From: a virus
Lineage: Duplodnaviria; Caudoviricetes
DNA length: 64,000 nucleotides
IMG/VR virus record: IMGVR_UViG_3300028048_003175
Coordinates: 1 to 64,000 of that record
Direction: 5' to 3' (one strand)
A program made the translations under genes and the position numbers. Shown in pieces: positions 1-64,000 of this stretch. Every line of letters begins with the position of its first letter. Position 1 is the first letter of the stretch. The notes beneath the pieces were generated by a model. It was not told the DNA's origin, searched no databases, and saw only the letters and a list, made by a program, of their open reading frames with translations.

Positions 1-23
1 ATCTTTGAGCGGCCTGAAGGCCT

Positions 24-177
24 AGTGAATAGTGAATAGTGAATAGTGAATAGTGAATAGTGAATAGTGAATAGTGAATAGTGAATAGTGAATAGTGAAT
101 AGTGATAAGTGAATAGTGAATAGTGATAAGTGAATAGTGAATAGTGAATAGTGAATAGTGATGAGTGATAAGTGATG
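24..177. repeat. Heptamer tandem repeat (AGTGANN)x22
   Basis: Period-7 array, mostly AGTGAAT with AGTGATA and AGTGATG variants. Confidence 0.95.
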
Positions 178-412
178 AGGGAGGAAAGAATTTGAGAGCG
201 ACCAATCGGCCGCTCTCAACCAACACAAAAACTAAACTAGACTTATATTGTGAAAACAGGCGTTTGTCTCTGACTTTCAGAAGCTTGGGTCTGCATCAGA
301 AATATGCTCCGACAATAATTCAGTCCTGTCAGTGTCTTTTTGGGGATCGAAAGCAGTCTCTCCGGAGGCTACGTTCATAGAGCCAGCGAAGTGGAAAGAA
401 CAGCCGACAAAC

Positions 413-10120: not shown

Positions 10121-10735
10121 ATGGAATTTTTTAATTTAATCGCATCGAAGATGCAGGACGGTCAGCAGTTGAACATGACCATCCGCAAGAACGGTGAAAA
10201 GCTCGTTCTTAGCATGATGCCCGATATGTCGGGTGTGAAAGACAAGGCGGTTTCCAGTCTGGAACCGTTAGTGATGAACGGCACTCCCCAGGAGTTCGAA
10301 GAGCAGTTTGAGCAGGCTGTCGCTCCCATTGAGAAAGCCTTCTCCCTCATGGACGAGGTCAATGCTTACGAGAAGACTGTTGAAGAGGCTCGTAAGAAAA
10401 CCGAAATGGAGTCCAAGAAAAAGAAGGAAGAGGCTGACCAGAAGCAGTCGTTCCTCGATCATCTTGCCCTTGCCAAGGAGTTGCTCGGAGAGCAGAAGTT
10501 CAAGGATGCCAAGACGGTCATTGCCAAGGCTGAGACCCTGCCTGGTGCCGACAAGGCTGCTTGCGACAAGCTCAAGAAAGAGGTTGACGAGAAGAGTGGC
10601 GAGGGTGGTATCTTCGGTGGTCCCGAGGACAAGAGTGACGGTAAGAAGCTGAGCCCTTCCAAGGGCAAGCCAGCTCCAGCACCTGACAAGAGTGATAGCG
10701 AACAGGAAGTCGAACAAACCGATGAGGAGGAGTAA
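10121..10735 (+). CDS. PRTRC system protein E
   Basis: N-terminal MEFF...LNMTIRK...PLVMNGTPQEFEEQF; position in the cassette. Confidence 0.75.
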   Translation: MEFFNLIASKMQDGQQLNMTIRKNGEKLVLSMMPDMSGVKDKAVSSLEPLVMNGTPQEFEEQFEQAVAPIEKAFSLMDEVNAYEKTVEEARKKTEMESKKKKEEADQKQSFLDHLALAKELLGEQKFKDAKTVIAKAETLPGADKAACDKLKKEVDEKSGEGGIFGGPEDKSDGKKLSPSKGKPAPAPDKSDSEQEVEQTDEEE

Positions 10736-10738
10736 GCT

Positions 10739-10951
10739 ATGTCAGCATTGAATGTAACTGGTCTGCAGCGTGTGTTCAAGCACGGCTCCAAGACCTTGAA
10801 AGACCCCGACAAGTCAATGTCCCCTGATGAGGTAATGCAGTTCTATGCTGGCACCTATCCGGAGTTGACTACAAGTAATGTTCATGGTCCTAAGATTGAC
10901 GGCGACAAAGCCGTCTATGAGTTCAAGACAACAGTAGGAACAAAGGGATGA
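10739..10951 (+). CDS. PRTRC system protein C (ubiquitin-like)
   Basis: RVF...LKDPD...PDEVMQFYAGTYPELTT...YEFKTTVGTKG; ends in Gly. Confidence 0.85.
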   Translation: MSALNVTGLQRVFKHGSKTLKDPDKSMSPDEVMQFYAGTYPELTTSNVHGPKIDGDKAVYEFKTTVGTKG

Positions 10952-10958
10952 AGAAGAA

Positions 10959-12167
10959 ATGCGAACCCAAGGAACTAAACGACTTCCACCACTCGCTGTG
11001 CTGCGTCATCAACGAGATAAGGAAGGATTTCCGACGCAGAATGGAGGACGAGGACGACGACAACAGTCGTCCCGTTCTTCTTCCAAGGGAAGCAACACCT
11101 TTGCTTTTTTAGGAGAAGAGCTGCAGGATATCCCCATCAAAGGTCATCTTGATAAGTATGAGATTGACTTTACTGGAAGTTATAAGAAGATAAGAGCAGC
11201 TATGGAACGGTTTCTTTCCGCCCATGACCTCAAGCTGAACTACAGGCCCAAGAGAGACGATGATGATGTCAAGAAGCTCAGCGACCTTACAGACCATTTT
11301 GAAAAGCTGCTGGAGCCTATGGACTACCATTGTATGCTTCACAAGGACGAGTACAACCCCATCCTTGACTGCGGTGTCTATGCTTATGGGGACGGAATGG
11401 ACTATACCATTGGAGAGCTGTATGTCCGTCCTGCTCACACGTTGCCAGACGAAGAGGCTATGCTGTTCAAGCGTTTCATGTCGTATTTCTCCAAGCAGAC
11501 GAATATCGGCTTAGGACTTGACGGCGACAGTTTCTTTCTCGAAACACAAGCCGACTGGTTTGCTGGCGAATATGACGACATCGATAGTATTGATGATGAT
11601 GATGAGAAAGAAGAATACCTGTTCCGGCAGCGTGTCATCAATGACTACAAGACTGGCGAATACAAGCAGTTGTTCGACGAGATAACTGCTCTCAATGTTG
11701 ACGGAGGCGAGTTAGCCAGAGACCTGCAGGCGTATCTGAAGCGCTATAAAGGCGTAGCGGAAAAGTTTGACGAGTGGAGGCTGATGGGCGTTCTTCTCGA
11801 TGGCATAGAGATAGCGAGTTTTATCAATATCTACGACTGGACCTGGGATCCTGAAAGTGACGGTGTTGACGAAAATCACGATGACAACTACTACACGGCA
11901 ACGAGTCTCTTGAATTTTATTTTGTATAGTGAGCACGACACCTTTGGGGAGTCAGTGCTTGATGCAGTCAATAATGGAGCTGATGAAATGCTGGGATGGT
12001 GCAACGTCCTTGTCATTACGAGGGATAATAACTTCGACGAGCGCAGAGAACACTTCGAGCAGTCGATATCCTACGTTCCCAAGTTCCGCCAATGGCTGCA
12101 GGATTTTTATCAAACAGCAGAAAAGTTCGATACAAATGAGTACACTAAAAGAACTAATGAGGGCTAA
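10959..12167 (+). CDS. PRTRC protein F-like acidic protein
   Basis: Lies between the C and B genes; assigned by synteny. Confidence 0.5.
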   Translation: MRTQGTKRLPPLAVLRHQRDKEGFPTQNGGRGRRQQSSRSSSKGSNTFAFLGEELQDIPIKGHLDKYEIDFTGSYKKIRAAMERFLSAHDLKLNYRPKRDDDDVKKLSDLTDHFEKLLEPMDYHCMLHKDEYNPILDCGVYAYGDGMDYTIGELYVRPAHTLPDEEAMLFKRFMSYFSKQTNIGLGLDGDSFFLETQADWFAGEYDDIDSIDDDDEKEEYLFRQRVINDYKTGEYKQLFDEITALNVDGGELARDLQAYLKRYKGVAEKFDEWRLMGVLLDGIEIASFINIYDWTWDPESDGVDENHDDNYYTATSLLNFILYSEHDTFGESVLDAVNNGADEMLGWCNVLVITRDNNFDERREHFEQSISYVPKFRQWLQDFYQTAEKFDTNEYTKRTNEG

Positions 12168-12849
12168 CATCAAGCCCACCGACGTCCTGATATTCTACAA
12201 GCCGGACGTTAACCTTGGCGGTGACGGCAACTACGTCGAGCATCGCAAAATCAAGAACGGGAAAATGGAGGCAGCGCATCCGCTGACCATCGAAGATTTC
12301 TCCAAGTTGGTGGCCACTATCAGCAAGTATGCGAAAAAAGACAGTGGTAGGACGGCATTGTCTGGAGTCATACCGTCAAACCTGCTCTATGCTGCCAGTG
12401 ACCTCACAAATATGCGTCTTGTATGGTGGACGCCACCCCATAAGCAGAAGCTCTATTTCACGAAGTCTGCAGGCATACCAGACGGAGATATGTGGGTTCC
12501 TGGGCTGGTGTTCTGTACCAACGGTCACGGTCTTAGCGTCTATGCCTTCAAAGGTTTCAAGCCCCGAAACGTTCTCTATAATGCCCCATTCTACAATGTC
12601 AACAACAGCGTCTGTCTCGGCTCTGCAAAGATACGGAAGCCAAAGGAAGACACCTACGGAGCGTGGATTGAGTACTGGGAGAATATGTTCTGGAGGTCTG
12701 AGTTCTCCCATATCCTCGGTGGCAATCCAATTAACGGTAACCTTGCCGTCATCACAAAGAAATGTATCAAAGAGGGTTGTCCGTTCCCTGCAGAAGTGAT
12801 GATACGTTCCAAGACAACACTTTCCAGTCTAATTAAAAACCAGAAATGA
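12136..12849 (+). CDS. PRTRC system protein B (prokaryotic E2-like)
   Basis: LVWWTPP, VPGLVF, LYNAPFYNV, VCLGS, FWRSEFSH. Confidence 0.8.
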   Translation: MSTLKELMRANIKPTDVLIFYKPDVNLGGDGNYVEHRKIKNGKMEAAHPLTIEDFSKLVATISKYAKKDSGRTALSGVIPSNLLYAASDLTNMRLVWWTPPHKQKLYFTKSAGIPDGDMWVPGLVFCTNGHGLSVYAFKGFKPRNVLYNAPFYNVNNSVCLGSAKIRKPKEDTYGAWIEYWENMFWRSEFSHILGGNPINGNLAVITKKCIKEGCPFPAEVMIRSKTTLSSLIKNQK

Positions 12850-13652
12850 TGAAAAAGAAAAAGCAGGACGCTCCACGCTTCATGAAGCACTACGTCCACA
12901 ACTACATACTTGACCCGTACCATGAGCTGACCGTCAACGTCATCGGTTGCGGTGGTACTGGTTCGCAGGTGCTGACCGCCCTTGGCAGGATGAGCTATGC
13001 GCTGAGGAAGCTGGGACACCCAGGGTTATTCGTCACGGCTTATGACGGCGATATCGTGACCGATGCCAACTGCGGTCGCCAGTTATTCTCTGAGCAGGAG
13101 ATCGGTTGCAACAAGGCTGAGGTTCTTATTTCAAAACTCAACTTCTTCTTCGGGACGAAGTGGGATAGCGTGAGCGACTTCTACAAGGAGGACAGCCCAC
13201 GTGCCAACATCACGATTTCCTGTGTTGACACCGCCAAGGCAAGGCTCCTCATCCGTAGTAATCTTGACTGTAAGACGAATAGCTATGGAGGGGACGAGGG
13301 ACAGCCTTACTACTGGCTGGATATGGGTAACCTCGCTGACAGAGGTCAGGTCGTATTGGGAACGGTTTCGTCCATCCAGCAGCCAAAGAAACGCAACGAT
13401 TGTGTTTCTGTATTGCCAGATGTGACAAAGCTATTCGACCTCAAGGCTGTCAAAGAGAAAGACCAGGGACCAAGCTGCTCACTGGCTGAGGCTCTGTCAA
13501 AGCAGGACTTGTTTATCAATTCCACTATTGCCAATGCCGGCATGGCGATCCTCTGGAAGATGTTCTCCGTCGGCTGTCTCGATATGCAGGGAGCGTTTCT
13601 AAATCTCACCACCATGCAGATGAACCCCATCAGAATAAGCAAAGGAAAATAA
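12846..13652 (+). CDS. PRTRC ThiF family (E1-like) enzyme
   Basis: IGCGGTGS, DGDIV..ANCGRQLF, NKAEVL, SCVD, GPSCSLAEAL..QDLFIN. Confidence 0.9.
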   Translation: MMKKKKQDAPRFMKHYVHNYILDPYHELTVNVIGCGGTGSQVLTALGRMSYALRKLGHPGLFVTAYDGDIVTDANCGRQLFSEQEIGCNKAEVLISKLNFFFGTKWDSVSDFYKEDSPRANITISCVDTAKARLLIRSNLDCKTNSYGGDEGQPYYWLDMGNLADRGQVVLGTVSSIQQPKKRNDCVSVLPDVTKLFDLKAVKEKDQGPSCSLAEALSKQDLFINSTIANAGMAILWKMFSVGCLDMQGAFLNLTTMQMNPIRISKGK

Positions 13653-13687
13653 TGTTTGTCCTTCTTTGTGGCAAACTTTTCTGCTGT

Positions 13688-13727
13688 GGCTGCGCCACCC
13701 GTGAGGGCCGTGCAGCCCTTTTTTATT
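13688..13727 (+). terminator. Intrinsic terminator
   Basis: GGCTGC..CC GTGA GG..GCAGCC followed by T tract. Confidence 0.65.
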
Positions 13728-13733
13728 GCTGGC

Positions 13734-13846
13734 TTGCAAATATGATTAACTATAATTAACGCTAAGGATTTTAAAATAATATCGTAAAAAGTTGCAAGAT
13801 TGATTATTTCTTTGTATCTTTGCCTATGCAAATAAGATAATAATCA
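13734..13846 (+). promoter_or_regulatory. Repeated early promoter/operator cassette, copy 2
   Basis: TATCTTTG at 13815-13822; three TGCA-N5-GATWA boxes. Confidence 0.85.
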
Positions 13847-13865
13847 CTCTTAACATTCAGAACAA

Positions 13866-14111
13866 ATGGAAAAATCAATGAACAGCAGCTCACTCGGAGC
13901 GCAAAAAAATCAGCAGGAAACTCAGTTCCAGCCAGTATCAAGCCGTTTTACTTTCAAGCTCATTAGAGCTTTCTTTGCCGTGTTTATCATCACATCGCTT
14001 GTTGTCGGTCTTTGGACCCATACCTGGCACAACATCATGTTTGCCGGCATGTTCTACTGTCTTTACAAGGCTATCAAATACGAGGACTACAACAATGGCA
14101 GAAAAGAGTAA
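13866..14111 (+). CDS. Small membrane protein
   Basis: Two hydrophobic segments. Confidence 0.6.
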   Translation: MEKSMNSSSLGAQKNQQETQFQPVSSRFTFKLIRAFFAVFIITSLVVGLWTHTWHNIMFAGMFYCLYKAIKYEDYNNGRKE

Positions 14112-14415
14112 TATCAAGATAATCGGGCAAGCTGCTCCACAATACGTCGCCGAGTGGGAGTTCTACGACTTCTACGAGCGCAAGAAGGTTGTTGAGCATG
14201 GCTGGCCAACAAACAGTGAGGAGGTGCAAAAGTTCCGCGAGCAGATGAAGAATATCGACTGGAACAACCTCAATAAGACCAAGGCAGGCAGCAAGATTCT
14301 CACGGGTGTCCGCATCTACAAGGGTGACGAGATCATCTACGACTGCTATTGCCCGTTGCGTGAGCTGTCAATGCTCAACACCCTATCCACGAAAATAGTT
14401 TCATTCAAAAAATAA
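14095..14415 (+). CDS. Hypothetical protein
   Basis: ATG at 14095 overlaps the upstream gene. Confidence 0.6.
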   Translation: MAEKSNIKIIGQAAPQYVAEWEFYDFYERKKVVEHGWPTNSEEVQKFREQMKNIDWNNLNKTKAGSKILTGVRIYKGDEIIYDCYCPLRELSMLNTLSTKIVSFKK

Positions 14416-14423
14416 TCAAGATT

Positions 14424-15020
14424 ATGGAAGAAAGAATTGACATTTCCAAGAGAGACCTCTTAGCGGCTTATGATGAAGCGAATAGCGACGGTAAGGCACT
14501 GCTGGAGAAATTGTATGGCAAAGCCATCTTTACGAAAGACATCACAGAACGTGTAAAGACATTCGAGGATGCCTTAGAAGTGCTTGGGGAAGTCCACTGT
14601 TTTGTTAGCGAGTATAATACGCTGGTAAACTCCGGACTTATCCACTCCTTATCTCCAGACCTCGTAGCTTACCTGAAGCTCCGTATTATTACTGCAGCCC
14701 TCAATGAAGGCTGGGAGCCTCAGTTTACTGTTGACGAGTACCGCTACTATCCCTGGTTCGATTTCTACACACAGAAAGAGATTGACGAAATGGATGAGGA
14801 AGACAGAAGCCGTGTCGTTAGTCGTGCGTCCTGCAATGCGAATGCGAATGGCGGTTGCGTTTGTGCGAACGCGAGCAACGCTTCTTCGTACTCGTATGCG
14901 GGCAGCGGTGCGCGTCTCGCCTTCAAGACACGTGAACTCGCCATTTATGCTGGCAAGCAGTTTATTGAAATTTGGGCTGACTTTGTGTTCCGTCCAGAAA
15001 CAAAGGAAACAGAAGAATGA
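14424..15020 (+). CDS. DGR remote target protein (198 aa, C-terminal variable region)
   Basis: Contains VR2; the VR ends GARLAF, as in the giant tail protein. Confidence 0.9.
   Translation: MEERIDISKRDLLAAYDEANSDGKALLEKLYGKAIFTKDITERVKTFEDALEVLGEVHCFVSEYNTLVNSGLIHSLSPDLVAYLKLRIITAALNEGWEPQFTVDEYRYYPWFDFYTQKEIDEMDEEDRSRVVSRASCNANANGGCVCANASNASSYSYAGSGARLAFKTRELAIYAGKQFIEIWADFVFRPETKETEE
14821..14920 (+). repeat. DGR variable repeat VR2
   Basis: 100 nt colinear with TR 62886-62985; 12 mismatches, all at TR adenines. Confidence 0.93.
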
Positions 15021-15439
15021 ACACACGAAAGCCCTTCAACTTCGATGAGCTTCTTGCCAAGGAAAGAGCCACGAAACCCAAGAAAGTGCAAGGTCACCAT
15101 GAGAGTGACCTCCAGATTTCTTGTGTGAAGTGGTTCAAGATGCAGTACAAAAGGTACATCATCTTTGCTGTTCCTAACGGTGGTACCAGGGATAAGAAAG
15201 AAATGATATGGATGCTCCGTGAGGGCATCCTCCCTGGCGTTGCCGATCTGGTCATCTTGGGTGACAGAGGGAAAATCCTCTTCGTTGAAATGAAGACACC
15301 TAAAGGAACCCAGAGCCAGCACCAGAAGGATTTTGAAGAGAAAGTAACCCAACTCGGTTTCCAGTATATCGTCTGCCGTTCTCTGGAGAGCTTCATGAAA
15401 GCCGTCCGTGAGTGGGTGGAAAAGATACGCTGGGAGTAA
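15017..15439 (+). CDS. VRR-NUC domain nuclease (second copy)
   Basis: ESDLQ...FAVPNGG...GVADL...FVEMK...Q. Confidence 0.85.
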   Translation: MNTRKPFNFDELLAKERATKPKKVQGHHESDLQISCVKWFKMQYKRYIIFAVPNGGTRDKKEMIWMLREGILPGVADLVILGDRGKILFVEMKTPKGTQSQHQKDFEEKVTQLGFQYIVCRSLESFMKAVREWVEKIRWE

Positions 15440-15453
15440 AAAGGAATAGAGAA

Positions 15454-15750
15454 ATGGATTTATCACTGATGTCTATCCTGTTCAGCAGCGAAGTGAAGAA
15501 CGCTGGCTTCATTGGGGTGCAACTGATTTTCGACCCCAAGACAGCGAGTGGCGTGGCAATGGTCGAGTCGCTTAATGGGGATTTGGATGGCCTTGCCAAA
15601 GCTGTCAGTGCCAGCATCGGTAAGAGGGGCAATGGAAACAGGGAGGAAATGTTCGACCTGTTCGCCAAGATTGTCCTCGAAAGCTGCAAGGGAAGACCAG
15701 ACAGATTATTGAAATTATCATCATTTATCAAACAGACTTATGAATTCTAA
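15454..15750 (+). CDS. Hypothetical protein
   Basis: ORF within the operon. Confidence 0.5.
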   Translation: MDLSLMSILFSSEVKNAGFIGVQLIFDPKTASGVAMVESLNGDLDGLAKAVSASIGKRGNGNREEMFDLFAKIVLESCKGRPDRLLKLSSFIKQTYEF

Positions 15751-16375
15751 GAAAGTTATCAATATCGGCATTGACCTTGAAACGCTCTCAACGTTTCCGA
15801 CAGCAGCTATCGTAGCGATTGCTGCCAAGGTCTTTACAATAGATCCTGATGAGAAATGTGACGGAGAGCAGTTCCGTGCGAATATAAACCCCATGTCTTG
15901 CATCGTCAACGGTTTCCATGTGGAGGAAGAGACCTGCAAATGGTGGAGTGAGCGCGAAGACACTGTGAAGAAGAATATGCTCAACCCGTCCTTCCCGTCC
16001 ATGAATATCGCATCAGCCCTCGACAGTTTCACAGACTGGATAGAACTTGTGAAATCGAACTACGAATGTGACGACGTGGTGATATGGATGGAAGGCACTG
16101 ACTTTGACGGTGCCATCCTCCGCAATGCCCTTCGCCGTACGTTCCCAGAGAAGGGGCGCAAGGCTGTGCCCTGGCATTATCGCCAGCTCCGTGACGCGAG
16201 GACATTCATCCTCGAAGGTATCAGACTGTTCCATGGTAACGTAGAAACCCCTTTTGAGCTGATACCAAAGCCAGAGACGCCTTTCCTGCATCATGACCCG
16301 ATGGGTGACGTGGAGCAGATGATTTGGAATATCCGCTATGTAAACAAATTATTCACCAATTCAATACAAAAGTAA
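15740..16375 (+). CDS. DEDDh 3'-5' exo(ribo)nuclease
   Basis: IDLETL, WW, FDGAIL, RDART, HHDPMGD. Confidence 0.8.
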   Translation: MNSKKVINIGIDLETLSTFPTAAIVAIAAKVFTIDPDEKCDGEQFRANINPMSCIVNGFHVEEETCKWWSEREDTVKKNMLNPSFPSMNIASALDSFTDWIELVKSNYECDDVVIWMEGTDFDGAILRNALRRTFPEKGRKAVPWHYRQLRDARTFILEGIRLFHGNVETPFELIPKPETPFLHHDPMGDVEQMIWNIRYVNKLFTNSIQK

Positions 16376-54250: not shown

Positions 54251-57200
54251 ATGATAAACGTTCAAGAATTATTAGGCAAAGTCGCCAACAACGGCGCAAC
54301 ATTAGCCGGCATTCTTGCCTACGGTGAGTGGAATACTCTCGTGCAGGCAGTCCGTGAACTTCAAGGTCTTGTCGCTTCTGACGAGAGGTTGAATAACATC
54401 AATACTCAGCTTACCGCCCTTAGCGACCGCATTACAGCGTTGAAGAATGAGAAGGACGGTGAAATAGCCCAGGTGCTCCAGCAGATTAACCAGACGCTGC
54501 AGGCCATTCTTACCGAGCAGGGCGCACGACAGCAGGGCGATGCTGCCTTGCAGACAGCCATCGACAATATGTCGGATGCTTTCAGTGACACCATCGATGC
54601 CCTCAGAGACATCGTTGACGGCAAGGCGACCATTGTGGAGCTGTCGAGCTACATGACCAACAATGCTCAACTGCCAAAGAACGGCCTTTACGTGTGGCAC
54701 GGCAATCCTGTGGACTCGCGTATGTTCACTAAATCAGAAGGTGATACGCTATGGCTTGTCTTCTGTCTGCGTAAGGGTGATGACTCTGACAGTAATTTCG
54801 GTGCTGGCATTCGTGACTGTCTGGTATATTCGACTGACGGTGACTCCGATCCGTTCTACTATGTCGGTCGCTATCTGAATGCCAATATTCCAGCGGACGT
54901 GCAGAAGGCCTTCGGCTATGACGATATGGCGAAGATAGTCACCATTAACTTGTCAGACTACTATCCTTCTCTGGAGGAAAGTCAAAACGGTTACATTGCT
55001 CTTGACGAAGAAGAGCTGGCGGATATCTTTGAAACACCGTCAAAAGCGTATGCGCTCCATGACAGACGGCTTCGCGTCATCACGGATGAGAGTGAGTACT
55101 ACGGATATCCTGCAACCATGCAGTATAGCGGCGGAAACTTTCACCGCTTGACCGTAGATATGGGGACTGAGATTTTGATAATCAGCATACCCGACGAAGG
55201 TGCATCAGCATTAGCATTCTCTGGCAATGGCGCCATGCGCCTTATCAGCCTGACGGAGATTCCTGCTGGTACAGTTACTGAGGATAATCTCGCTGCTGGT
55301 GTGAAGACGAAACTGAACAAGAGAGACGTCATCGATGTGGAATGGTGGTTCGACCCAGTACCACGTCGTATGTATACGCCGACGAAAGCAGGCCTCTATT
55401 GGTATGTGCCGACAGAAAAGCAATTGCTTGTCTCTGTTGAAACAGAGAATAGCGGTGTTTACGAGTTCGTTGAGGTGACACCACAAGGCAATACCATCTA
55501 TATCGATGTCGATGAGAATATTCCGTATATCTGGAAGGATGATGACATGTCATCCATTGCGCCAAAGAAGGCTCCTGCCAGCATCTTCAACGCCACGAAC
55601 GAGGTTCCCATCAGTGGCTACTATGTTCTGTGTGATGACGAGAACGAGTCCACCAGTGCCGTCCATGCCGCATGGAACGCGGAGAAGGCGGTGAGCGGTC
55701 TTATTATCTCCTTCGAGATAGGTGCAGGTATCTGGAAGACCTACCAGTATGTCGGCAGAACCGTGACGGAGGTGAACTGGATGAACTCGGATAACTGGAA
55801 GGACTTCGGCTCCCTCGCTGCTGGCAGTGAATCGTACATCGTGATAGACGGACTCATCGGTGCGCCAGTGGCTGGAGAGTTCTATACCTTAGAGACTGCA
55901 GTCGCTCGCCTGGTAGCCTATCAGCAGGAAACAGGTGTCACTTATGCCAAGAAAGGACTTGTCATCAGTTATCGCACGGCTGAGAACGTGATGGAGACCA
56001 AACAGTTCCAAGGTGAGATAAGTGGCTTTGGCGAAGTCGGACTTTGGAAAGATTTTGGCGGTGGCTCGGAGGTCGAGACGTCAGATGAGCCGGAAGAGGG
56101 TGGCACAGACGCACTGTCAACTGGTGGCGCATACACTCATACCCCTGCTGGTATCAGCGTCGATACAGAAACAGAGGGAGTCGTGAAGCTGAAACTCGTC
56201 AATGCAGGAGGCGAAGATGTAGGTGATGAGATACAGTTCCCCGTCGGCTCCGGCAGCGGTGGTGGTAGTGGTACGACCATTGCCGTGGCTTTCAGAGACA
56301 ATCCGTTCTACGGAAAGGCTGGAGGTTCATTCCTCGTGAAAGCAGCTATCATGTCTGTAACGAAGGCAGGTAGCCAGGAAACATCTAACACTATCACCAG
56401 TGTCGTATTCGTCAATCGCACCACAAAGAACACGGTTGCCAGCTTCAATCCTCGTAAGGCTTCGAGTGCTACGATGTCCGACTATTCCTTCGAGTTTGAC
56501 CTGAGCAATCTTGGACAGAGTGCCGGAGAAATACCTCTGCAGGCAATCATCACTGATGATGGTGGCAACACAGCAACTAAGAATCTTAGCATGGTCGCTA
56601 TTGATGTGACGTGTGTTAGCGTTCAGACGCTCAACTACACGCGAGAGACATCATTACAGGTTGGTGGTCCGAGAACGTCCATCCCTATGTACCGTTTCCC
56701 GAACAATGCTTCCGATCGAGGCATACGCACCAAGATTGAGATATATAAGAACAATGCGTGGGAAACACTGCAGGAGATAGTCATTACAGATACCTATCCT
56801 CACAATGTCAGCATCGACCCGACAGGCATGGGGCATGGCGCATATCCTATCCGCATACAGGGTACCGATGTTGCAAGTGGCACAAGGGGTAATATCCTGC
56901 ATACCGCAGTCATGGTGATTGAGCAGCGTGAGGACGTTGCGGACTACGACAAGCCTATTGTTGTCGCTCGTTGGAGTGATGACACAGACGGAGAGGTGAA
57001 GCTGTTTGAGACGCTGCAGATAGACATTGCCTGCTATCAGCGCAGCACCAACCCGACTACCGTGCAGGTGAAGATAACTGACGAGACAACAGGAGTCAGC
57101 GAGACCATTTCCGAAAGTGCAATGTATCGCAACAAATACTACACTATCGAGAAGCGTATCGTTGGCTACAACAACGGTGACACGCTGGTATTCGATGCTG

Positions 57201-60200
57201 TGTGTGGATTGGTTTCGCTGCCAGAGACAAGAGAAGTGCATGTGAACGGTTCCTTGCTCGACATCGCAGAGACCGAGGGAGCACTCTACAAAATCAGTCT
57301 TGCAGGGCGCAGCAATACCGACACCGATAAGACGATCAAGACAACGGCAACTGACGGGACAGAATTGGAACTGGAGGTAATCGGTTCCAACTATTCAACC
57401 AACGGCTTTGTACCTGACACGTTTGGAACAGAGAAGAGCGGTGGTCGCATGTCGTTGCGTGTGGCAGAGAATGTGAAAGCCGTATTTAACGACCAGCCAT
57501 TCAAGAGTACGTCAATTCCTACAAATGGTTTGGCTCTCTCTATGACCTTCAAGGTTAAGAATATTGCAGACCGCAAGGCTCGCATCATCCGTTGTATGGG
57601 TGAGCGTCTCGGCTTCGTGCTGACGGGAGAGAAATTCTATGTCACGACGAACGGAGATACTGACGAGGCATTGGCTTCTGTATTCACTACCGCTGCCACA
57701 TCGTATCTTGATGACGTGGTATATCGCTTTGACATCGTGATAGAGCCGCAGTCAAGAGCACCATACAGTGGTGTCATGCTCTGCAAGGTGTTCCAGAATG
57801 GTGACATGGCTGCTTGTGTTCCTATCGATACGACCAGTGCTTTCCCGAACTTCGACGACTTCATTCACTTTGACGGTACTGATGCAGACCTGTATCTGTA
57901 CGAGATTGTCCGTTGGAACACTTACTACGACTTCATTCAAGCGTTCAACAACTATATCGTGAACCTCACGGACACGCAGGCTATGCTTAAAGAGTATGAG
58001 CAGAACCGCGTTATGATAGACGTAACGGCTGAGGGTACCACAAAACCGCGTCCAGATATGCAGCGACTGATTGACCGTGGCGTGATGGTTTGTGTCGAGA
58101 CAAGAACTTCAGACGCTAACTTGAGCAAAGATGGCTCTGCAGTAAGCGATAGCGAGATATATTATCCAGACTATATCGAGAATATCAAGGATAAAAAGAC
58201 TACCGTCATAATGGACTGGTATCTGTACTTCCCCGACCGTCCTTGGGCAGACTGCAAGATAGAGGCTATTCCTGTGACCAACCAAGGAACTTCGACCCTT
58301 GCTTATGCCATCAAGAACAAGAAGGGCAAGGCGAAGAAAGCCAAGCGTATTGTCATGTTGCACACACGCGAAGAGGTGAGCCGCATGTACAATGGTGATG
58401 AGAACATTCTTGCGAAGTATGACGATGCAGTACGACTGGCTTCAAAGAAGAAGATTCGTATCAAGGACGGCAGCACCCCTATCAACACCATTACTATCAA
58501 GGTGGACTATTCTGACAGTGCAGGTGCCAACAACTGTGCGCTGATGGAGCAAATGAACGATGTACAGATTGCTTTGGGCAGGAACTACATGACACCTGCA
58601 CAGATATTCAACACTGACAGTAGCGAGGAGCTGCACACCTCAATTGATGGTATTACCTGCGCATTGTTCCGTACTGACTACCGTATCGGTCAAGACAAAG
58701 GCTCTGAGGCAGCAACACTTCCTGAGAACGCTTATTTCCACAGCAAGGCTAACTTCAATGCCGACAAGGGCAATCCCCATTTTTTCGGCTTTGAGGATGT
58801 GCCCGGCTACAACAAAGGCTGTGTGAACTATGGCGATTTCAAAGAGATTGTTACACCGCGAGGAACCAACATCGATGATTACAAGGCTACGGTGCTGGCT
58901 GGTTCCGCAACACTTATTCCTGGCACTCTTTACATGATAAGTGAGTTCTGTGGTCCAGAAACGCGCTTCATAGAGAATGACGGAACAGGTGCCATGACAG
59001 AGACCGATGCCGTAGCAGAGTTCGAGGAGGTTGATAAGACAGGCGCTGAGATTGCTGCAGACGATGTAAGCGGTTACGACTGGGCAACAGTCTATCGCAG
59101 CACCGATAATAAGTACTACAAGTACGCAGGTGGTGTATGGCGCGATACTACGGGCAGCATGACATACGACAGCAGCACCGGGAAGTGGGTGATTGTCGGA
59201 AGGGTGCTTAACCCAGTTGAGTGCTACGAGTACCGACAGTACCAGGAGTTCTGTTGGCAGCAGGGCGTGAACAGCGTTGATGATATGCTTGAAACGCTGC
59301 ATACCGATGATGGCGATGTGCCTATCTGGTCAACATATTACGAGAGCCGTTATCCGGATGATGATGACTTGAACGACTTGTATGCACAGGGCAAGAAAGT
59401 ACCTTACCAGTTGTTCCGTGAGCTGTTGTTCTGTCAGCAGTGTAATCAGAACCTCACCGACAATCAAGAGGAGAATGCCGCACTGAACCCCGATGGCAGC
59501 GAGAAAATCTTCAACGGTGCTGGTGCCAGTACTACGATAACCCTTGATGGAAACACTGTAGCAGGAACTAAGGCTAACCGTCTGTTGAAGTGGCAGCACG
59601 AAATGCACAAGTATTACAATCCGTATTCCACAAACTGCTACATCGTAGGATCCGACTACAAGGCAACTGTTGACCAGCGAGCCAAGAATATGATGAAAGC
59701 AGTCTATAAGGAGACTGATGGCAGCATGCGTTTTTACTTCAACCACTGGTATGACGGTGATAGCGTTGACGAAGCAGACAATGACTGTTACCTGACCATT
59801 CCTTGGGACATGGACGCACGTTCAAGCCATCTCTATCAAGGGTGGGACGGTGTGATGTTCCAGCAGACTTATGCGCTCTTTGAGCAGGGGAAGGGTGTCT
59901 GGATTGACAATGCCGGCACGCAGCTCACTCTCCATGATACGGCAGCAGCTATGCGAAATACAAAGACCAATGCAGGACTGGAGATTTTCAGTGCTGACGG
60001 TTGCTATCGCTACTGGATGACATACCGCATCTTGAAGTGGCCAAAGGTGGTGAGCAGTTTTGATGGAGAGCGTAAGTATATCGAAACAGCTACTGCAGCA
60101 GACAATCACTATCCGGCATTGCACGGATTGCGTCTTGAGAGTCTGCCAGCTTTCCAACGCAAGCGTTTCGCATATCGTGACGGTTACTTCCAGACAGGTG

Positions 60201-62761
60201 ACCTGTTCAAGCACTTCTTCCAGGCGCGTGTGATGGGACCGATTACGGTTAAGATAACGGCAGCACAGGACGGTTACTTTGGTATGGGTGTTGATAGCAC
60301 CAGCAGCGCAAAGTATTCGTGCTATCTGCAAGCAGGCGAGAGCCACACCTTCACGGAAGCAGCAACCGGTGTCGGTGGTAAGCTGATTTACATCTTTGGT
60401 GCAGACAAGCTGAGCGAACTTGATTTGAGCGGCTGTACTCCGAAGAACTCAAACTGGATGATTGCCGACTGCACCCTGTTAAGGAAACTGATCATCGGTG
60501 GCGCAAGCTATACTCCTGCTTATACTGATGATATTTTGTCAGCATTGAGCCTCGGACAGATGCCATTCCTGGAGGAGATAGACATAAGAAGTACACGAAT
60601 TATGACGCTGAACGCAAGCGGTTGTCCTCGATTGAAGAAAGTGCTTGCAAGCGGCAGTCAGCTTCGCACGTTCACTCCTGCACAATCGTCACCGTTGCAG
60701 ACAATCTCTCTTCCTGCAACCATGACGGACCTTATCTTTGTCAACCTCCCCAATATCGGCTATCCTAACGGTGGATTGACAATAGAGGGCTTGGCAAACG
60801 TGACACGTGTACAAGTGGCAGGTTGTCCGAAACTGGATGCCGTACAGTTGCTGTCTGATATTGTTTCAGCAAACGGAAGCATCAGCGAAATATCGCTGGA
60901 GGAGAAGAAGGTAACTGGCGACGTGGCTATTCTGCGTGCGTTGATTGCCAGCGGAGCAAAAGGATTCTCTTCAGACCTCACTACCGGCTGCGATGGTCTT
61001 AGCGGAAAGTGGATTCTGAACACGTTGATAGAGGACAGCGAGCTTGCGACGATACGGGCTTACTTCCCACTTCTGACCGTCAGCAACTCATTGTATAGCG
61101 ATTACAAGGAGTATGACCTCGAAAGCGACACTGAGAACGTTACGAACTTGGATAACCAGACTGGTTATGATTATAATAACGAGTACGTGCCAAGCGGCCA
61201 TATCCTCAAGATACGCGCCAAAAGTGTTCCTGTGAAAGGTCAGTTCGACAAGGTGACAAAAGCCATGACACTCACCAAATTGTCAGAGGAAAACTATAAG
61301 CAGTTCCCAGACGGTTCCGCTTTTGACAATACCGATGCTCTTGGTGAAGGCTATGACTGTTTCATCTACATTCCTAACTTCTACTACAAAGGTATCAACG
61401 ACTTCAAGAGACAGGAGAAGCACACACTTTTGTCTGCCTTTGTCACTGAGCCGGAAGCCACATGGACGCAGAAGAAGGAGGGTGTCTTGTCTGAGCTCCT
61501 TTATGCTGACGCTTCTGGAATACCCATTGGCAGCATAAACGTGGGCGATACATTCTCTGATGAGACGCATATTGCTATTCTGTCATCGTGTGCCGTGTAT
61601 CGTCTCGATGTCGAGGGAATGAAGCAGGTTCGTTACATCGGTCTGAATAATGCCACCTACGGCAGCATCTTCGTTGATAGTGAGGGAAAGGTGCTTCAGA
61701 AAGATGCTCTCTCGATAACAGGAACAACGGCATGTCCGCTGGACTTCAAGAACGAGAATGGTGACTATATCTATAGAGACGTGCCGACAGGTGCCAAGTG
61801 GATATACTTCACCTGCATCCGTGCGCTGTCTGATGAGGGTCATCCTGTCTTTGCCGTTGACAGTAGCGATATTGAGGCTATTGAGCCGGGCTGGGAGAAG
61901 CACTACTCTGAGGTGATAGGTATCTATGGCGCAAGTATAGATGACCTCGGCTTCATCCGTTCACTTTCCGGCAAGGTGACAAAGCGAGGCACTGGAACGA
62001 GCACCACATCATCGGAATGGACCTACGATGCCGACGGAATGCCGACCAATCAGCCAGTTGGAGCCTTGAACTACACTGGACAGGACTTCTATAATCTCTG
62101 TTATCTGCGTGGAGAGGGTTATCATGATGTCAGCTACGACCAGAACAAGACCATTGCTATCCTCTCGAAGTGCTGGATAGGCGACCGAGACGACCAGGCG
62201 AAACACGGTATGGGTGTTTCCGCAGGCTATACCACTGGCCAACTTGACAGTTATGGTAGCCATGATACCGCTTCCGGAATGAACAAGATCTGGAAGCTTG
62301 AGGCATGGGTGGCTTGTAACTGGGAGTTCATGGACTACGTCGGTGTGAACATCAGCAGCTTCATCGAATGGAGAAGAAACAAACGTCCGCAGTCGGGTAC
62401 GGTCGATGCTGTATGGCATATCTATGACCCACATACTAATACGGAGCGCACTGTGCAGGGTATAACTAATTCGGGTGTTTGTATCGCCCGTCTGAAGCAT
62501 GGTCGTCACTGCGACATCATTGCGAGCAGTTGTAACTCTGACAGTAGCAGGTGGAATACCTGTTATGCAGCAGGTAATTACTATACAGCCACTGGTGGGC
62601 GCGTGGTTGGTCGTGCGCTCTACAATGCGGGTGCGTATGGCGGTTGCGTTTGTGCGGACGCGAGCTACGCTTCTTCGGGCTCGTATGCGTTCGTCGGTGC
62701 GCGTCTCGCCTTCAGCGGAAGATTCGCAAACGAAAGCGAAATAGACCCGGAGCTGCAGTAA
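54251..62761 (+). CDS. Giant tail fibre/adhesin (2836 aa), DGR target with LRR region and C-terminal variable domain
   Basis: VR1 at the C-terminus; LRR-like units at about 60400-60900. Confidence 0.85.
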   Translation: MINVQELLGKVANNGATLAGILAYGEWNTLVQAVRELQGLVASDERLNNINTQLTALSDRITALKNEKDGEIAQVLQQINQTLQAILTEQGARQQGDAALQTAIDNMSDAFSDTIDALRDIVDGKATIVELSSYMTNNAQLPKNGLYVWHGNPVDSRMFTKSEGDTLWLVFCLRKGDDSDSNFGAGIRDCLVYSTDGDSDPFYYVGRYLNANIPADVQKAFGYDDMAKIVTINLSDYYPSLEESQNGYIALDEEELADIFETPSKAYALHDRRLRVITDESEYYGYPATMQYSGGNFHRLTVDMGTEILIISIPDEGASALAFSGNGAMRLISLTEIPAGTVTEDNLAAGVKTKLNKRDVIDVEWWFDPVPRRMYTPTKAGLYWYVPTEKQLLVSVETENSGVYEFVEVTPQGNTIYIDVDENIPYIWKDDDMSSIAPKKAPASIFNATNEVPISGYYVLCDDENESTSAVHAAWNAEKAVSGLIISFEIGAGIWKTYQYVGRTVTEVNWMNSDNWKDFGSLAAGSESYIVIDGLIGAPVAGEFYTLETAVARLVAYQQETGVTYAKKGLVISYRTAENVMETKQFQGEISGFGEVGLWKDFGGGSEVETSDEPEEGGTDALSTGGAYTHTPAGISVDTETEGVVKLKLVNAGGEDVGDEIQFPVGSGSGGGSGTTIAVAFRDNPFYGKAGGSFLVKAAIMSVTKAGSQETSNTITSVVFVNRTTKNTVASFNPRKASSATMSDYSFEFDLSNLGQSAGEIPLQAIITDDGGNTATKNLSMVAIDVTCVSVQTLNYTRETSLQVGGPRTSIPMYRFPNNASDRGIRTKIEIYKNNAWETLQEIVITDTYPHNVSIDPTGMGHGAYPIRIQGTDVASGTRGNILHTAVMVIEQREDVADYDKPIVVARWSDDTDGEVKLFETLQIDIACYQRSTNPTTVQVKITDETTGVSETISESAMYRNKYYTIEKRIVGYNNGDTLVFDAVCGLVSLPETREVHVNGSLLDIAETEGALYKISLAGRSNTDTDKTIKTTATDGTELELEVIGSNYSTNGFVPDTFGTEKSGGRMSLRVAENVKAVFNDQPFKSTSIPTNGLALSMTFKVKNIADRKARIIRCMGERLGFVLTGEKFYVTTNGDTDEALASVFTTAATSYLDDVVYRFDIVIEPQSRAPYSGVMLCKVFQNGDMAACVPIDTTSAFPNFDDFIHFDGTDADLYLYEIVRWNTYYDFIQAFNNYIVNLTDTQAMLKEYEQNRVMIDVTAEGTTKPRPDMQRLIDRGVMVCVETRTSDANLSKDGSAVSDSEIYYPDYIENIKDKKTTVIMDWYLYFPDRPWADCKIEAIPVTNQGTSTLAYAIKNKKGKAKKAKRIVMLHTREEVSRMYNGDENILAKYDDAVRLASKKKIRIKDGSTPINTITIKVDYSDSAGANNCALMEQMNDVQIALGRNYMTPAQIFNTDSSEELHTSIDGITCALFRTDYRIGQDKGSEAATLPENAYFHSKANFNADKGNPHFFGFEDVPGYNKGCVNYGDFKEIVTPRGTNIDDYKATVLAGSATLIPGTLYMISEFCGPETRFIENDGTGAMTETDAVAEFEEVDKTGAEIAADDVSGYDWATVYRSTDNKYYKYAGGVWRDTTGSMTYDSSTGKWVIVGRVLNPVECYEYRQYQEFCWQQGVNSVDDMLETLHTDDGDVPIWSTYYESRYPDDDDLNDLYAQGKKVPYQLFRELLFCQQCNQNLTDNQEENAALNPDGSEKIFNGAGASTTITLDGNTVAGTKANRLLKWQHEMHKYYNPYSTNCYIVGSDYKATVDQRAKNMMKAVYKETDGSMRFYFNHWYDGDSVDEADNDCYLTIPWDMDARSSHLYQGWDGVMFQQTYALFEQGKGVWIDNAGTQLTLHDTAAAMRNTKTNAGLEIFSADGCYRYWMTYRILKWPKVVSSFDGERKYIETATAADNHYPALHGLRLESLPAFQRKRFAYRDGYFQTGDLFKHFFQARVMGPITVKITAAQDGYFGMGVDSTSSAKYSCYLQAGESHTFTEAATGVGGKLIYIFGADKLSELDLSGCTPKNSNWMIADCTLLRKLIIGGASYTPAYTDDILSALSLGQMPFLEEIDIRSTRIMTLNASGCPRLKKVLASGSQLRTFTPAQSSPLQTISLPATMTDLIFVNLPNIGYPNGGLTIEGLANVTRVQVAGCPKLDAVQLLSDIVSANGSISEISLEEKKVTGDVAILRALIASGAKGFSSDLTTGCDGLSGKWILNTLIEDSELATIRAYFPLLTVSNSLYSDYKEYDLESDTENVTNLDNQTGYDYNNEYVPSGHILKIRAKSVPVKGQFDKVTKAMTLTKLSEENYKQFPDGSAFDNTDALGEGYDCFIYIPNFYYKGINDFKRQEKHTLLSAFVTEPEATWTQKKEGVLSELLYADASGIPIGSINVGDTFSDETHIAILSSCAVYRLDVEGMKQVRYIGLNNATYGSIFVDSEGKVLQKDALSITGTTACPLDFKNENGDYIYRDVPTGAKWIYFTCIRALSDEGHPVFAVDSSDIEAIEPGWEKHYSEVIGIYGASIDDLGFIRSLSGKVTKRGTGTSTTSSEWTYDADGMPTNQPVGALNYTGQDFYNLCYLRGEGYHDVSYDQNKTIAILSKCWIGDRDDQAKHGMGVSAGYTTGQLDSYGSHDTASGMNKIWKLEAWVACNWEFMDYVGVNISSFIEWRRNKRPQSGTVDAVWHIYDPHTNTERTVQGITNSGVCIARLKHGRHCDIIASSCNSDSSRWNTCYAAGNYYTATGGRVVGRALYNAGAYGGCVCADASYASSGSYAFVGARLAFSGRFANESEIDPELQ
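62598..62709 (+). repeat. DGR variable repeat VR1
   Basis: 112 nt colinear with TR; 18 mismatches, all at TR adenines. Confidence 0.95.
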
Positions 62762-62770
62762 GCAGCGCAA

Positions 62771-62814
62771 AACGTGGCACGTTGGGCAGGGGGAAAGAAA
62801 AAAGCCCCCTGCCC
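62771..62814. other. Hairpins downstream of VR1 (possible DGR target-recognition element)
   Basis: AACGTG-G-CACGTT and GGGCAGGGGG-N11-CCCCCTGCCC. Confidence 0.55.
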
Positions 62815-62873
62815 CCGAGCCCCAAAAAACGTCCCCAAGTGTGAGGATGAAAAAAGGTAGAGGACTTCCTCAT

Positions 62874-62985
62874 GGCGCGTGGTTGGTCGTGCGAACAACA
62901 ATGCGAATGCGAATGGCGGTTGCGTTTATGCGAACGCGAACAACGCTTCTTCGAACTCGAATACGAACAACGGTGCGCGTCTCGC
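62874..62985 (+). repeat. DGR template repeat (TR)
   Basis: AAY-rich copy of both VRs (12 AAC/AAT codons, 26 A), upstream of the RT. Confidence 0.95.
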
Positions 62986-63198
62986 AAACAAGTTAATCAG
63001 CTCTATGGTGTATGCTTGCGTGACAGGCAATGACAATGGCTGACAAGTCCGAGCCTCGGCAACAGCAATTTCTCTCCAGTCTGCAAAGAAATGGAAAGAA
63101 TTGGAAAGCGGAAAAACCAAAGGTGCAACCTATGATAGGTGAGTAAACAAGGAATTGGCTGAAAGTCTTAACGGTTGCGGAATGAAGGATTATTCAGA

Positions 63199-64000
63199 AT
63201 GAGTAAAAGATACGGTCATATATTACCGCAAATCATCGATAGGCGAAACATGGACGATGCCTTTGATGAGGTTGTAGGTGGCCTTGAGTCGAAAGAGCGT
63301 CGTGAGCACTATGAGGCACAAAGAGAGGATATTATATCACGGCTGACTGCCAAGATAGGCTCCGGCACCTTTCGAATCACTCATTACGAACAGTTCTGGG
63401 TACAAGACGGACCTAAGCGTAGGTTGATACAGTCGCCCAGTGTGAAAGACAGAATAGGTTGCAATGCCGTGATGAGAGTGGTGGAGAAGTATATCTACCC
63501 GACTATCATCAAGACTTCTGCTGCAAGCATCAAAGGACGTGGCATGCACAGACTATACCGTAAGATGCGGACGGACGTGCGCCATGACCGAGAGGGAACG
63601 AAGTACTTCTATATGTGCGACATCAGAAAGTTCTATGAGAGCGTAGATCAAGACCTGACGTTTGAAATATTGAAGGGCTATATCAAAGACCCTGTGGTGC
63701 TGCCGATGCTGGAGAGTTTTATAAGACTCATGCCGAAAGGACTTTCCATCGGATTGCGTTCTTCGCAGTGCTTCGGCAATATGCTCCTGTCAAAGATGGG
63801 TCACAGGCTAAAGGAGAAAGAGGGTGTTCGCTACCTTTATATCTACTGTGATGACATACGAGTGTATGGTGCAACGAAGAAGTGGCTTTGGCATATCCGA
63901 GACATCATTCACGAAGAGATAGAGGGTCTTGGACTGGAGATAAAGCCCAGTGAGGCAGTCAAGCCTACGACAGAGGGAAATGATTTCCTTGGGTATATCG
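63199..64000 (+). CDS. DGR reverse transcriptase (truncated by the window edge)
   Basis: Translated by hand: MSKRYG...KRRLI...DIRKFYESVD...GLSIGLRSSQ...YCDD...DFLGY; absent from the ORF track because it has no stop in the window. Confidence 0.95.
   Translation, partial: MSKRYGHILPQIIDRRNMDDAFDEVVGGLESKERREHYEAQREDIISRLTAKIGSGTFRITHYEQFWVQDGPKRRLIQSPSVKDRIGCNAVMRVVEKYIYPTIIKTSAASIKGRGMHRLYRKMRTDVRHDREGTKYFYMCDIRKFYESVDQDLTFEILKGYIKDPVVLPMLESFIRLMPKGLSIGLRSSQCFGNMLLSKMGHRLKEKEGVRYLYIYCDDIRVYGATKKWLWHIRDIIHEEIEGLGLEIKPSEAVKPTTEGNDFLGYI

Follow-up and report, generated by a model that had tools for sequence, protein, structure and literature searches.

Evidence for a remote second target of a single DGR in the replication region of a ruminant-gut phage

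The closest described systems are phages in which a single DGR serves two variable repeats (VRs). In Quimbyvirus, whose reverse transcriptase (RT) is encoded in three overlapping frames, the second VR belongs to a gene that is remote from the structural module and is surrounded by nuclease and methyltransferase genes, and the product of this gene, a homologue of the protein described below, was named a C-type lectin domain protein and read as non-structural and related to phage–host conflict (Benler et al., 2021, Microbiome, PMC8008677). Double-VR DGRs have also been described in four inducible Bacteroidota prophage species in a 2025 Nature paper, which cites LoVEphage beside the phage of Benler et al. 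(PMC12629997). Similarly, one DGR has two targets, one of them distant, in the Bacuni phages F1–F4 of Bacteroides uniformis, near-identical isolates of which differ almost solely in their VRs (Hedzet et al., 2021, PMC8143477). Two targets of unlike function served by one phage DGR are known from the tentaclins of small gut myoviruses as well, in which both targets are internal to the cassette and target 1, with an N-terminal C-lectin followed by Ig domains, is thought to be anchored in the virion (PMC10743442). According to its authors, the largest metagenomic DGR survey used a method that was unable to detect remote targets (PMC8144416).

The window analyzed here, a 64-kb stretch of DNA, is the first part of a 97,848-bp (97.8-kb) virus record. 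The original prediction held that one DGR in this phage feeds two genes, one of them remote and outside the structural module, and the genome, the population variation and 18 other phages all agree with it. The novelty that it implied for a remote second target was not borne out, since such an arrangement had already been published (PMC8008677, PMC12629997, PMC8143477), and in this respect the window is mainly confirmatory. As in Quimbyvirus and LoVEphage (MW660583, QVQ57199), one VR is found in a large tail-module protein by the RT and the other in a distant small protein of a DNA-metabolism or modification region, and the distal target of LoVEphage is a full-length homologue of the protein found here, approximately 42% identical by tblastn (44% in a MAFFT alignment). 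The present phage differs from both in its larger size (97.8 kb) and its origin in ruminant gut samples, in its RT, which is a single ORF rather than split over three frames, and in the position of the remote target gene, which is on the same strand as the DGR, with VR2 48 kb from the TR; its neighbors are nucleases, a dUTPase, a beta clamp and a PRTRC cassette instead of methyltransferases. The Bacteroidota prophages resemble it in that their double-VR systems are near counter-defence-type genes and were read as part of a phage–host arms race, and differ in being cultured and from the human gut; the available sections of that paper analyze neither the protein family nor its structure (PMC12629997). 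The Bacuni phages are set apart by an Avd gene, by genomes of 40 kb and by two fimbrial-tip-like targets, each with the VR in its last 35 residues (PMC8143477). With the DGR of phage BPP-1, which diversifies the Mtd tail fibre, the present system shares adenine-specific transfer from TR to VR, a GC-rich 3′ element that is unlike in VR and TR, and a receptor-binding target in the tail, whereas BPP-1 has a single adjacent target, Avd and a hairpin after the VR, none of which was found at VR2.

DGR-bearing phages usually diversify receptor-binding tail proteins, and the mechanism is one in which the RT copies TR RNA to cDNA and misreads template adenines, the cDNA then replacing the matching stretch of a VR. 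The RT gene of this phage (63199..64000, on to 64491 of the record, + strand) was recognized by RVT_1 at 7.9e-11, and its ORF starts 210 nt past the non-coding TR (62874..62990, + strand), which lies between the RT gene and the stop codon (62761) of a 2836-aa ORF. This ORF (54251..62761, + strand; from the ORF list), downstream of a tape-measure-like protein, encodes the tail-region protein that forms the adjacent, first target of the DGR, and VR1 (62598..62714, + strand) is its C-terminal variable repeat. No Avd/HRDC-type accessory gene was found in the cassette, where no ORF lies between target, TR and RT; not all DGRs have such a gene. Past the RT, two ORFs were observed (window 62762–64000 together with L007:1805–2778), the first with a match to DUF4376 (2.3e-5) and the second without a Pfam match. 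The remote target gene (14424..15020, + strand) encodes a protein of 198 aa that is a member of PHROG 11581 by its translation and its phrog_11581 match, and the remote variable repeat, VR2 (14821..14925, + strand), encodes residues 133–167 of this protein. The evidence for VR2 consists of its adenine-only mismatches, the variation among relatives and a 3′ end in common with VR1.

The core of VR2 (14821–14920) aligns to TR 62886–62985 over 100 nt without gaps, and 12 of 12 mismatches fall at TR adenines. With 26 A among the 100 nt of this TR span, the probability that 12 random mismatches would all strike adenines is 9e-9 (hypergeometric), so the adenine-only match from which the original prediction started holds on recounting. 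The recount also agrees with the figure of 18 adenine-only mismatches given earlier for VR1: 18/18 mismatches are at adenines over the span of the VR2 core, and 21/21 over 62880–62990, with a substitution pattern that differs from that of VR2. Both VRs are read in a common frame and end in ...GARLAF, as had been stated and as is seen in the translations. The repeat occurs in exactly three copies in the full 97,848-bp record, namely TR, VR1 and VR2. At each of the 74 non-adenine positions in the VR2 core (74/74), synonymous sites included, the sequence is identical to TR, which is what recent copying from TR predicts and what an old duplication would not produce. This identity weighs heavily against the possibility that VR2 is a relic, either an old duplication or gene conversion of the VR cassette into an unrelated early gene or a former target that is no longer diversified, a reading that we consider very unlikely. 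Two features of the repeat do fit a relic, namely the drift of the 5′ flank of VR2 away from TR at non-adenine positions and the absence of a hairpin after VR2. A separate observation concerns codon 147 (14862–14864; TR TAT at 62927–62929), which is TGT in both VR1 and VR2. The TAT of the template could yield Tyr, Cys, Ser or Phe, and Tyr and Cys only were observed among 21 relatives, which suggests selection at a scaffold position within the GGCVC motif.

The boundaries of VR2 are informative in themselves. On the 5′ side of TR 62886, VR2 carries non-adenine mismatches and, relative to VR1, it starts 12 nt further in. On the 3′ side, its likeness to TR reaches 14925, where both VRs read GC-CTTCA, whereas TR reads GC-AAACA, an IMH*-like end. 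The terminal 19 nt of VR2 (14907–14925, + strand), GGTGCGCGTCTCGCCTTCA, form a GC-rich, IMH-like 3′ end that is also present in VR1. The codon of Phe167 in this stretch is AAC in TR and an invariant TTC in all relatives; as it is templated as AAC and yet fixed as TTC, it marks the 3′ boundary of VR2. The IMH is the site at which mutagenic homing starts, and in Bordetella phage BPP-1 the direction of DGR homing is set by IMH/IMH* elements. By analogy, the shared 3′ end of the two VRs probably acts as the IMH, and the TR version as the IMH*. In all phages that could be compared three ways (18/18, the present one included), VR1 and VR2 have a common 3′ end that is unlike that of TR, the most frequent forms being GC-CTTCA for the VRs and GC-AAACA for TR. 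A hairpin or cruciform after the VR enhances homing in BPP-1, and no strong one was found after VR2 (DNA fold z = +1.4).

Variation among close relatives provides a second line of evidence. A set of approximately 20–21 proteins of 198 aa, 81–94% identical to the present one, was drawn from a large protein collection; nearly all of them come from separate assemblies, and most are alone in their own 90%-identity cluster. In their alignment, residues 1–132 and 167–198 are near-invariant, while residues 136–161 vary at discrete positions. Mean column entropy, which here describes variation between samples, is 2.47 bits at the 14 VR codons that have a TR adenine in position 1 or 2, versus 0.42 bits at the remaining 20 VR codons; beyond the VR it is close to 0.1 bit. 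The variation at TR-adenine sites of VR2 that had been put forward as a check on the prediction is therefore present in these 21 close relatives (2.47 vs 0.42 bits). A relic would be expected to change everywhere, whereas near-identical genomes from many samples differ almost solely at TR-adenine codons. Two scaffold types were observed among the close relatives, GGCVYA...GARLAF and GGVAYA...GSRLAF. Public sequencing runs that contain the phage come from bovine, sheep and other gut metagenomes of 13 studies, and their Logan contigs, which drop minority variants, differ between samples at TR-adenine positions.

The metagenomic origin of the record raises the question of whether the VR2 match might be an assembly artefact, that is, a chimeric join or a misplaced repeat. 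Apart from metagenomic assembly as such, the point in favor of an artefact is that contigs of one public run break inside VR2. In this bovine-gut run (X4), contigs end or begin inside VR2 (14834–14925), and several short contigs that continue in TR-like or VR1-like sequence accumulate at this place, which is expected of a hypervariable repeat that breaks assembly. On the other side, the same gene with the same neighbors occurs in independent assemblies from several studies, the gene is also found in genomes of cultured phages, the reading frame is intact, and conserved family sequence flanks VR2 on both sides. We regard an artefact as having almost no chance of being the explanation. In the closest syntenic relative (record L018, 101,963 bp), compared over window positions 11929–16375, ThiF and VRR_NUC are 80% identical to those of the present phage, while the DGR target is just 51% identical and the RT 56%, which indicates that the target diverges with the DGR rather than with its neighbors.

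A third line of evidence is the co-variation of the remote target with the TR of its own phage. At least 219 loci in IMG/VR encode relatives of the 198-aa protein; 28 of the larger records were searched, and an RT was recognizable in 14. In each of these 14 records (14/14), the VR-like stretch of the homologue matches two places beside the RT. In the 14 records and in one more (G021), which has TR and VR1 and an RT too diverged to detect, one of the two RT-side matches differs from the homologue mostly or solely at its own adenines (15/15, 17/17, 14/14, 16/16 and 21/21, for example), which identifies it as the TR and the second match as the adjacent VR1. The named Bacteroides phages behave in the same way, with VR2 mismatches at adenines of their own TR in 19/19 cases for LoVEphage, 10/10 for BT-TP2 and 15/16 for Versailles. 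In total, the homologue of the small protein matches its own TR in 18 other Bacteroidales phages, so the co-variation of VR2 with TR that the prediction would lead one to look for is seen across related phages. As the RTs of the related records are just 27–65% identical to that of the present phage, the TR sequences vary from record to record, and each small protein follows the TR of its own genome. The target gene was also observed without a DGR: two records that are rated complete (G012 and G010, one of which has terminal repeats) retain it and have no RT, TR or VR1. Their VR-like stretch has the scaffold of a DGR-bearing sister (G011) and differs from it at the variable positions, as if the DGR had been lost and one variant frozen in place. 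These fixed variants count in favor of the relic explanation discussed above, in so far as they imply that a target can persist without a DGR; they also imply that the protein is retained where diversification has become impossible. Taking the genome, the population variation and the co-variation together, VR2 is best regarded as a real and recently active DGR target.

As originally predicted, the remote target is located among early nuclease and replication genes. Upstream of the target gene lie, in this order, a PRTRC-type cassette, a promoter-like repeat near 13.8 kb and two small ORFs; downstream come the nuclease and replication genes, which encode a VRR_NUC nuclease, an Rv2179c-like exonuclease, a dUTPase and a DNA polymerase III beta clamp. 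It is 20 kb downstream of the target gene that the terminase and tail genes start. The cassette (10121–13652) is of the PRTRC-type ubiquitin-like conjugation kind, with matches to PRTRC_E (3.4e-29), Prok-E2_D (8.9e-30) and ThiF (1.2e-8). A similar setting was found across the family: at 80 related loci, the neighbors include a YqaJ-type exonuclease (25 loci, usually downstream), a metallo-beta-lactamase-fold hydrolase (17), RecT (15) and VRR_NUC (12), and further common neighbors are an HTH protein and a Lin1244-type replication protein, nearly all on the same strand. These counts indicate that the target gene is a regular resident of a recombination and replication module, a placement that argues for a non-structural role, although it is no proof of one.

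The claim that a repeated promoter-like motif stands upstream of the target was likewise supported. The motif TTGTATCTTTG has 5 copies on the + strand versus 0.06 expected, and one copy (13812–13822) lies approximately 600 nt upstream of the target gene, with two small ORFs between them. This copy belongs to the nearest upstream Bacteroidetes-type promoter cassette, TTG...TATCTTTG (13783..13822, + strand; repeat families D4–D6), whose putative function is that of a promoter, and the TTGTATCTTTG repeat may drive early transcription. RNA-library contigs overlap the target gene at 14475–14735 and 14916–15074, where DNA carry-over is possible and the gap at VR2 is uninformative. At the start of the record (window 9–211), approximately 25–30 tandem copies of the 7-nt unit TAGTGAA were observed, with the variants TAAGTGA and TGAGTGA.

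The protein itself belongs to a large family. Its match to phrog_11581 (9.5e-65) extends over residues 4–195 of 198, and this PHROG carries no assigned function; the named members matched by tblastn are LoVEphage, BI-TP1, PV4-TP1, BT-TP2 and Versailles. The family comprises 7597 clusters at 90% identity, nearly all of 190–205 aa, and 1917 representatives at 50%. The protein is acidic (35 Asp + Glu versus 22 Lys + Arg), with a highly charged N-terminus, and, in agreement with what had been claimed, hydropathy reveals no hydrophobic segment that could serve as a TM segment or signal peptide (maximum 19-residue Kyte–Doolittle window 1.08). A Pfam scan of the protein gave no match, and a scan of 94 diverse family members at E ≤ 1 gave scattered chance matches and no lectin, FGE or DUF1566 family; Tad2/DUF2829 was likewise absent from these members. 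Rare longer relatives (P0274 and P0276, 387 aa), one cluster of which has 12 sequences, cover 98% of the small protein and carry DUF285 (PF03382) in addition, either as a genuine fusion or through a chimeric assembly. Seven fused forms of 382–794 aa (with DUF285, DUF1566 or PBP) were considered as a clue to function and set aside, being mostly singletons on 2–4-kb contigs and possibly chimeric joins made at the shared repeat during assembly. Ten representatives of 245–340 aa with N-terminal extensions contain no credible Pfam domain.

The structure prediction, which had been proposed as a way to look for a C-type lectin fold, as expected of DGR variable proteins of the Mtd, TvpA and TaqVP type, did not recover one. 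The AlphaFold2 model of the 198-aa protein, built on a 94-sequence alignment, has a mean pLDDT of 79 and a confident helical N-terminal domain at residues 9–93 (pLDDT > 90 for much of it), followed by a confident but mostly irregular stretch (residues 94–131) and, toward the C-terminus, by confident helices at residues 170–188. The VR (residues 132–162) has a pLDDT below 50, so the N-terminal part of the model is firm while the part in which a lectin fold was sought is not, and the model as a whole matched no known fold. Foldseek against the PDB gave no match at E ≤ 0.001, the best of 48,161 chains in VIA-align had a Z of 3.7, which is not convincing, and a search of the ESM Atlas returned unnamed viral clusters only; sequence and profile searches of the PDB with both DGR targets found nothing credible. 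The absence of matches to a predicted model would not make the fold a new one. The VR peptide RVV.R...G.RLAF may resemble the C-terminal strands of FGE-type domains. Membership in the tentaclins was considered for the 198-aa protein and rejected, as it has a helical N-terminal domain and no Ig or Fn3 domain, where the tentaclins have a conserved C-terminal Ig anchor.

A rival reading is that the small protein is a component of the virion or of adsorption, such as a minor tail protein, a decoration protein or a binder of cell-surface glycans released at lysis, and is diversified for host range like VR1. In its favor, the small protein and the tail protein have a templated binding segment in common, the homologue in Versailles is labelled “tail protein”, and a fimbrial-tip-like annotation and a link to host range were given to both targets of the Bacuni phages, the distant one among them (PMC8143477). 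However, the likeness of the small-protein family to the tail protein is limited to 41–42 TR-templated residues in both pairwise BLASTP and profile–profile comparison, and the end of phrog_14959, a tail profile of 2494 positions, is matched by the C-terminal VR part of the 198-aa protein alone. The Versailles label most likely reflects this shared segment and nothing else, and no likeness to structural PHROGs was found outside the VR. In addition, a secretion signal is absent, 20 kb separate the gene from the downstream terminase, and its relatives at the 80 loci keep company with RecT, YqaJ, the metallo-beta-lactamase-fold hydrolase and VRR_NUC. A role in the virion is therefore unlikely in our estimate. 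A model of the tail-protein C-terminus (AlphaFold2, last 249 aa, 12-sequence alignment) had a mean pLDDT of 40.5 and was not usable for comparison.

We are thus highly confident that the 198-aa gene is a genuine second target of a single DGR acting in trans, and that its product is most likely a binding protein outside the virion. In the mechanism that we propose, the RT would copy TR RNA (62874–62990) into cDNA while misreading template adenines, and the cDNA would replace the matching stretch in any DNA that bears the cognate 3′ recognition end. VR1 in the tail protein and VR2 48 kb away both carry this putative end, GGTGCGCGTCTCGC-CTTCA, while TR has ...GC-AAACA. As the recognition end is on both VRs and not on TR, information would flow one way, from TR to both genes, each of which would be diversified independently. 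The expected outcome is a set of approximately 14 randomizable residues (136–161) carried by a soluble protein whose N-terminal domain is helical, by which the phage could re-roll the specificity of a binder, for example against a variable host factor or a defence protein. We infer that retrohoming at VR2 takes place in this phage today, that the gene is expressed early, and that the protein is located inside the cell, where it would bind a ligand. An intracellular counter-defence or host-takeover role is suggested by the genomic context, and the same speculation is already in print.

A more specific version of this role is possible, though we think it rather doubtful. PHROG 11581 might be a non-lectin helical scaffold onto which the 42-residue, TR-templated binding segment of the tail protein has been grafted, and which would serve within the infected cell to inhibit a variable host nuclease or defence protein in a re-programmable way. 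If this were true, the protein would occupy a Gam-like position in a RecT/YqaJ recombination module, and would represent a viral counter-defence protein that works inside the cell and that a DGR diversifies on a non-lectin display scaffold.

The present analysis adds to the known two-target systems a member from the ruminant gut with a TR-to-VR distance of 48 kb. It also provides the size of the target-protein family, its usual setting in a recombination module and the finding that the templated segment is all that it shares with the tail target, together with the conserved 3′ end common to both VRs, the DGR-less sister genomes with a frozen variant, and a model without a recognizable lectin fold. 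The family occurs in cultured and genetically tractable Bacteroides phages (LoVEphage, BT-TP2 and Versailles), in which its role is directly testable. A hypervariable soluble protein encoded in the replication module suggests that targeted hypermutation in these phages also serves something inside the cell.
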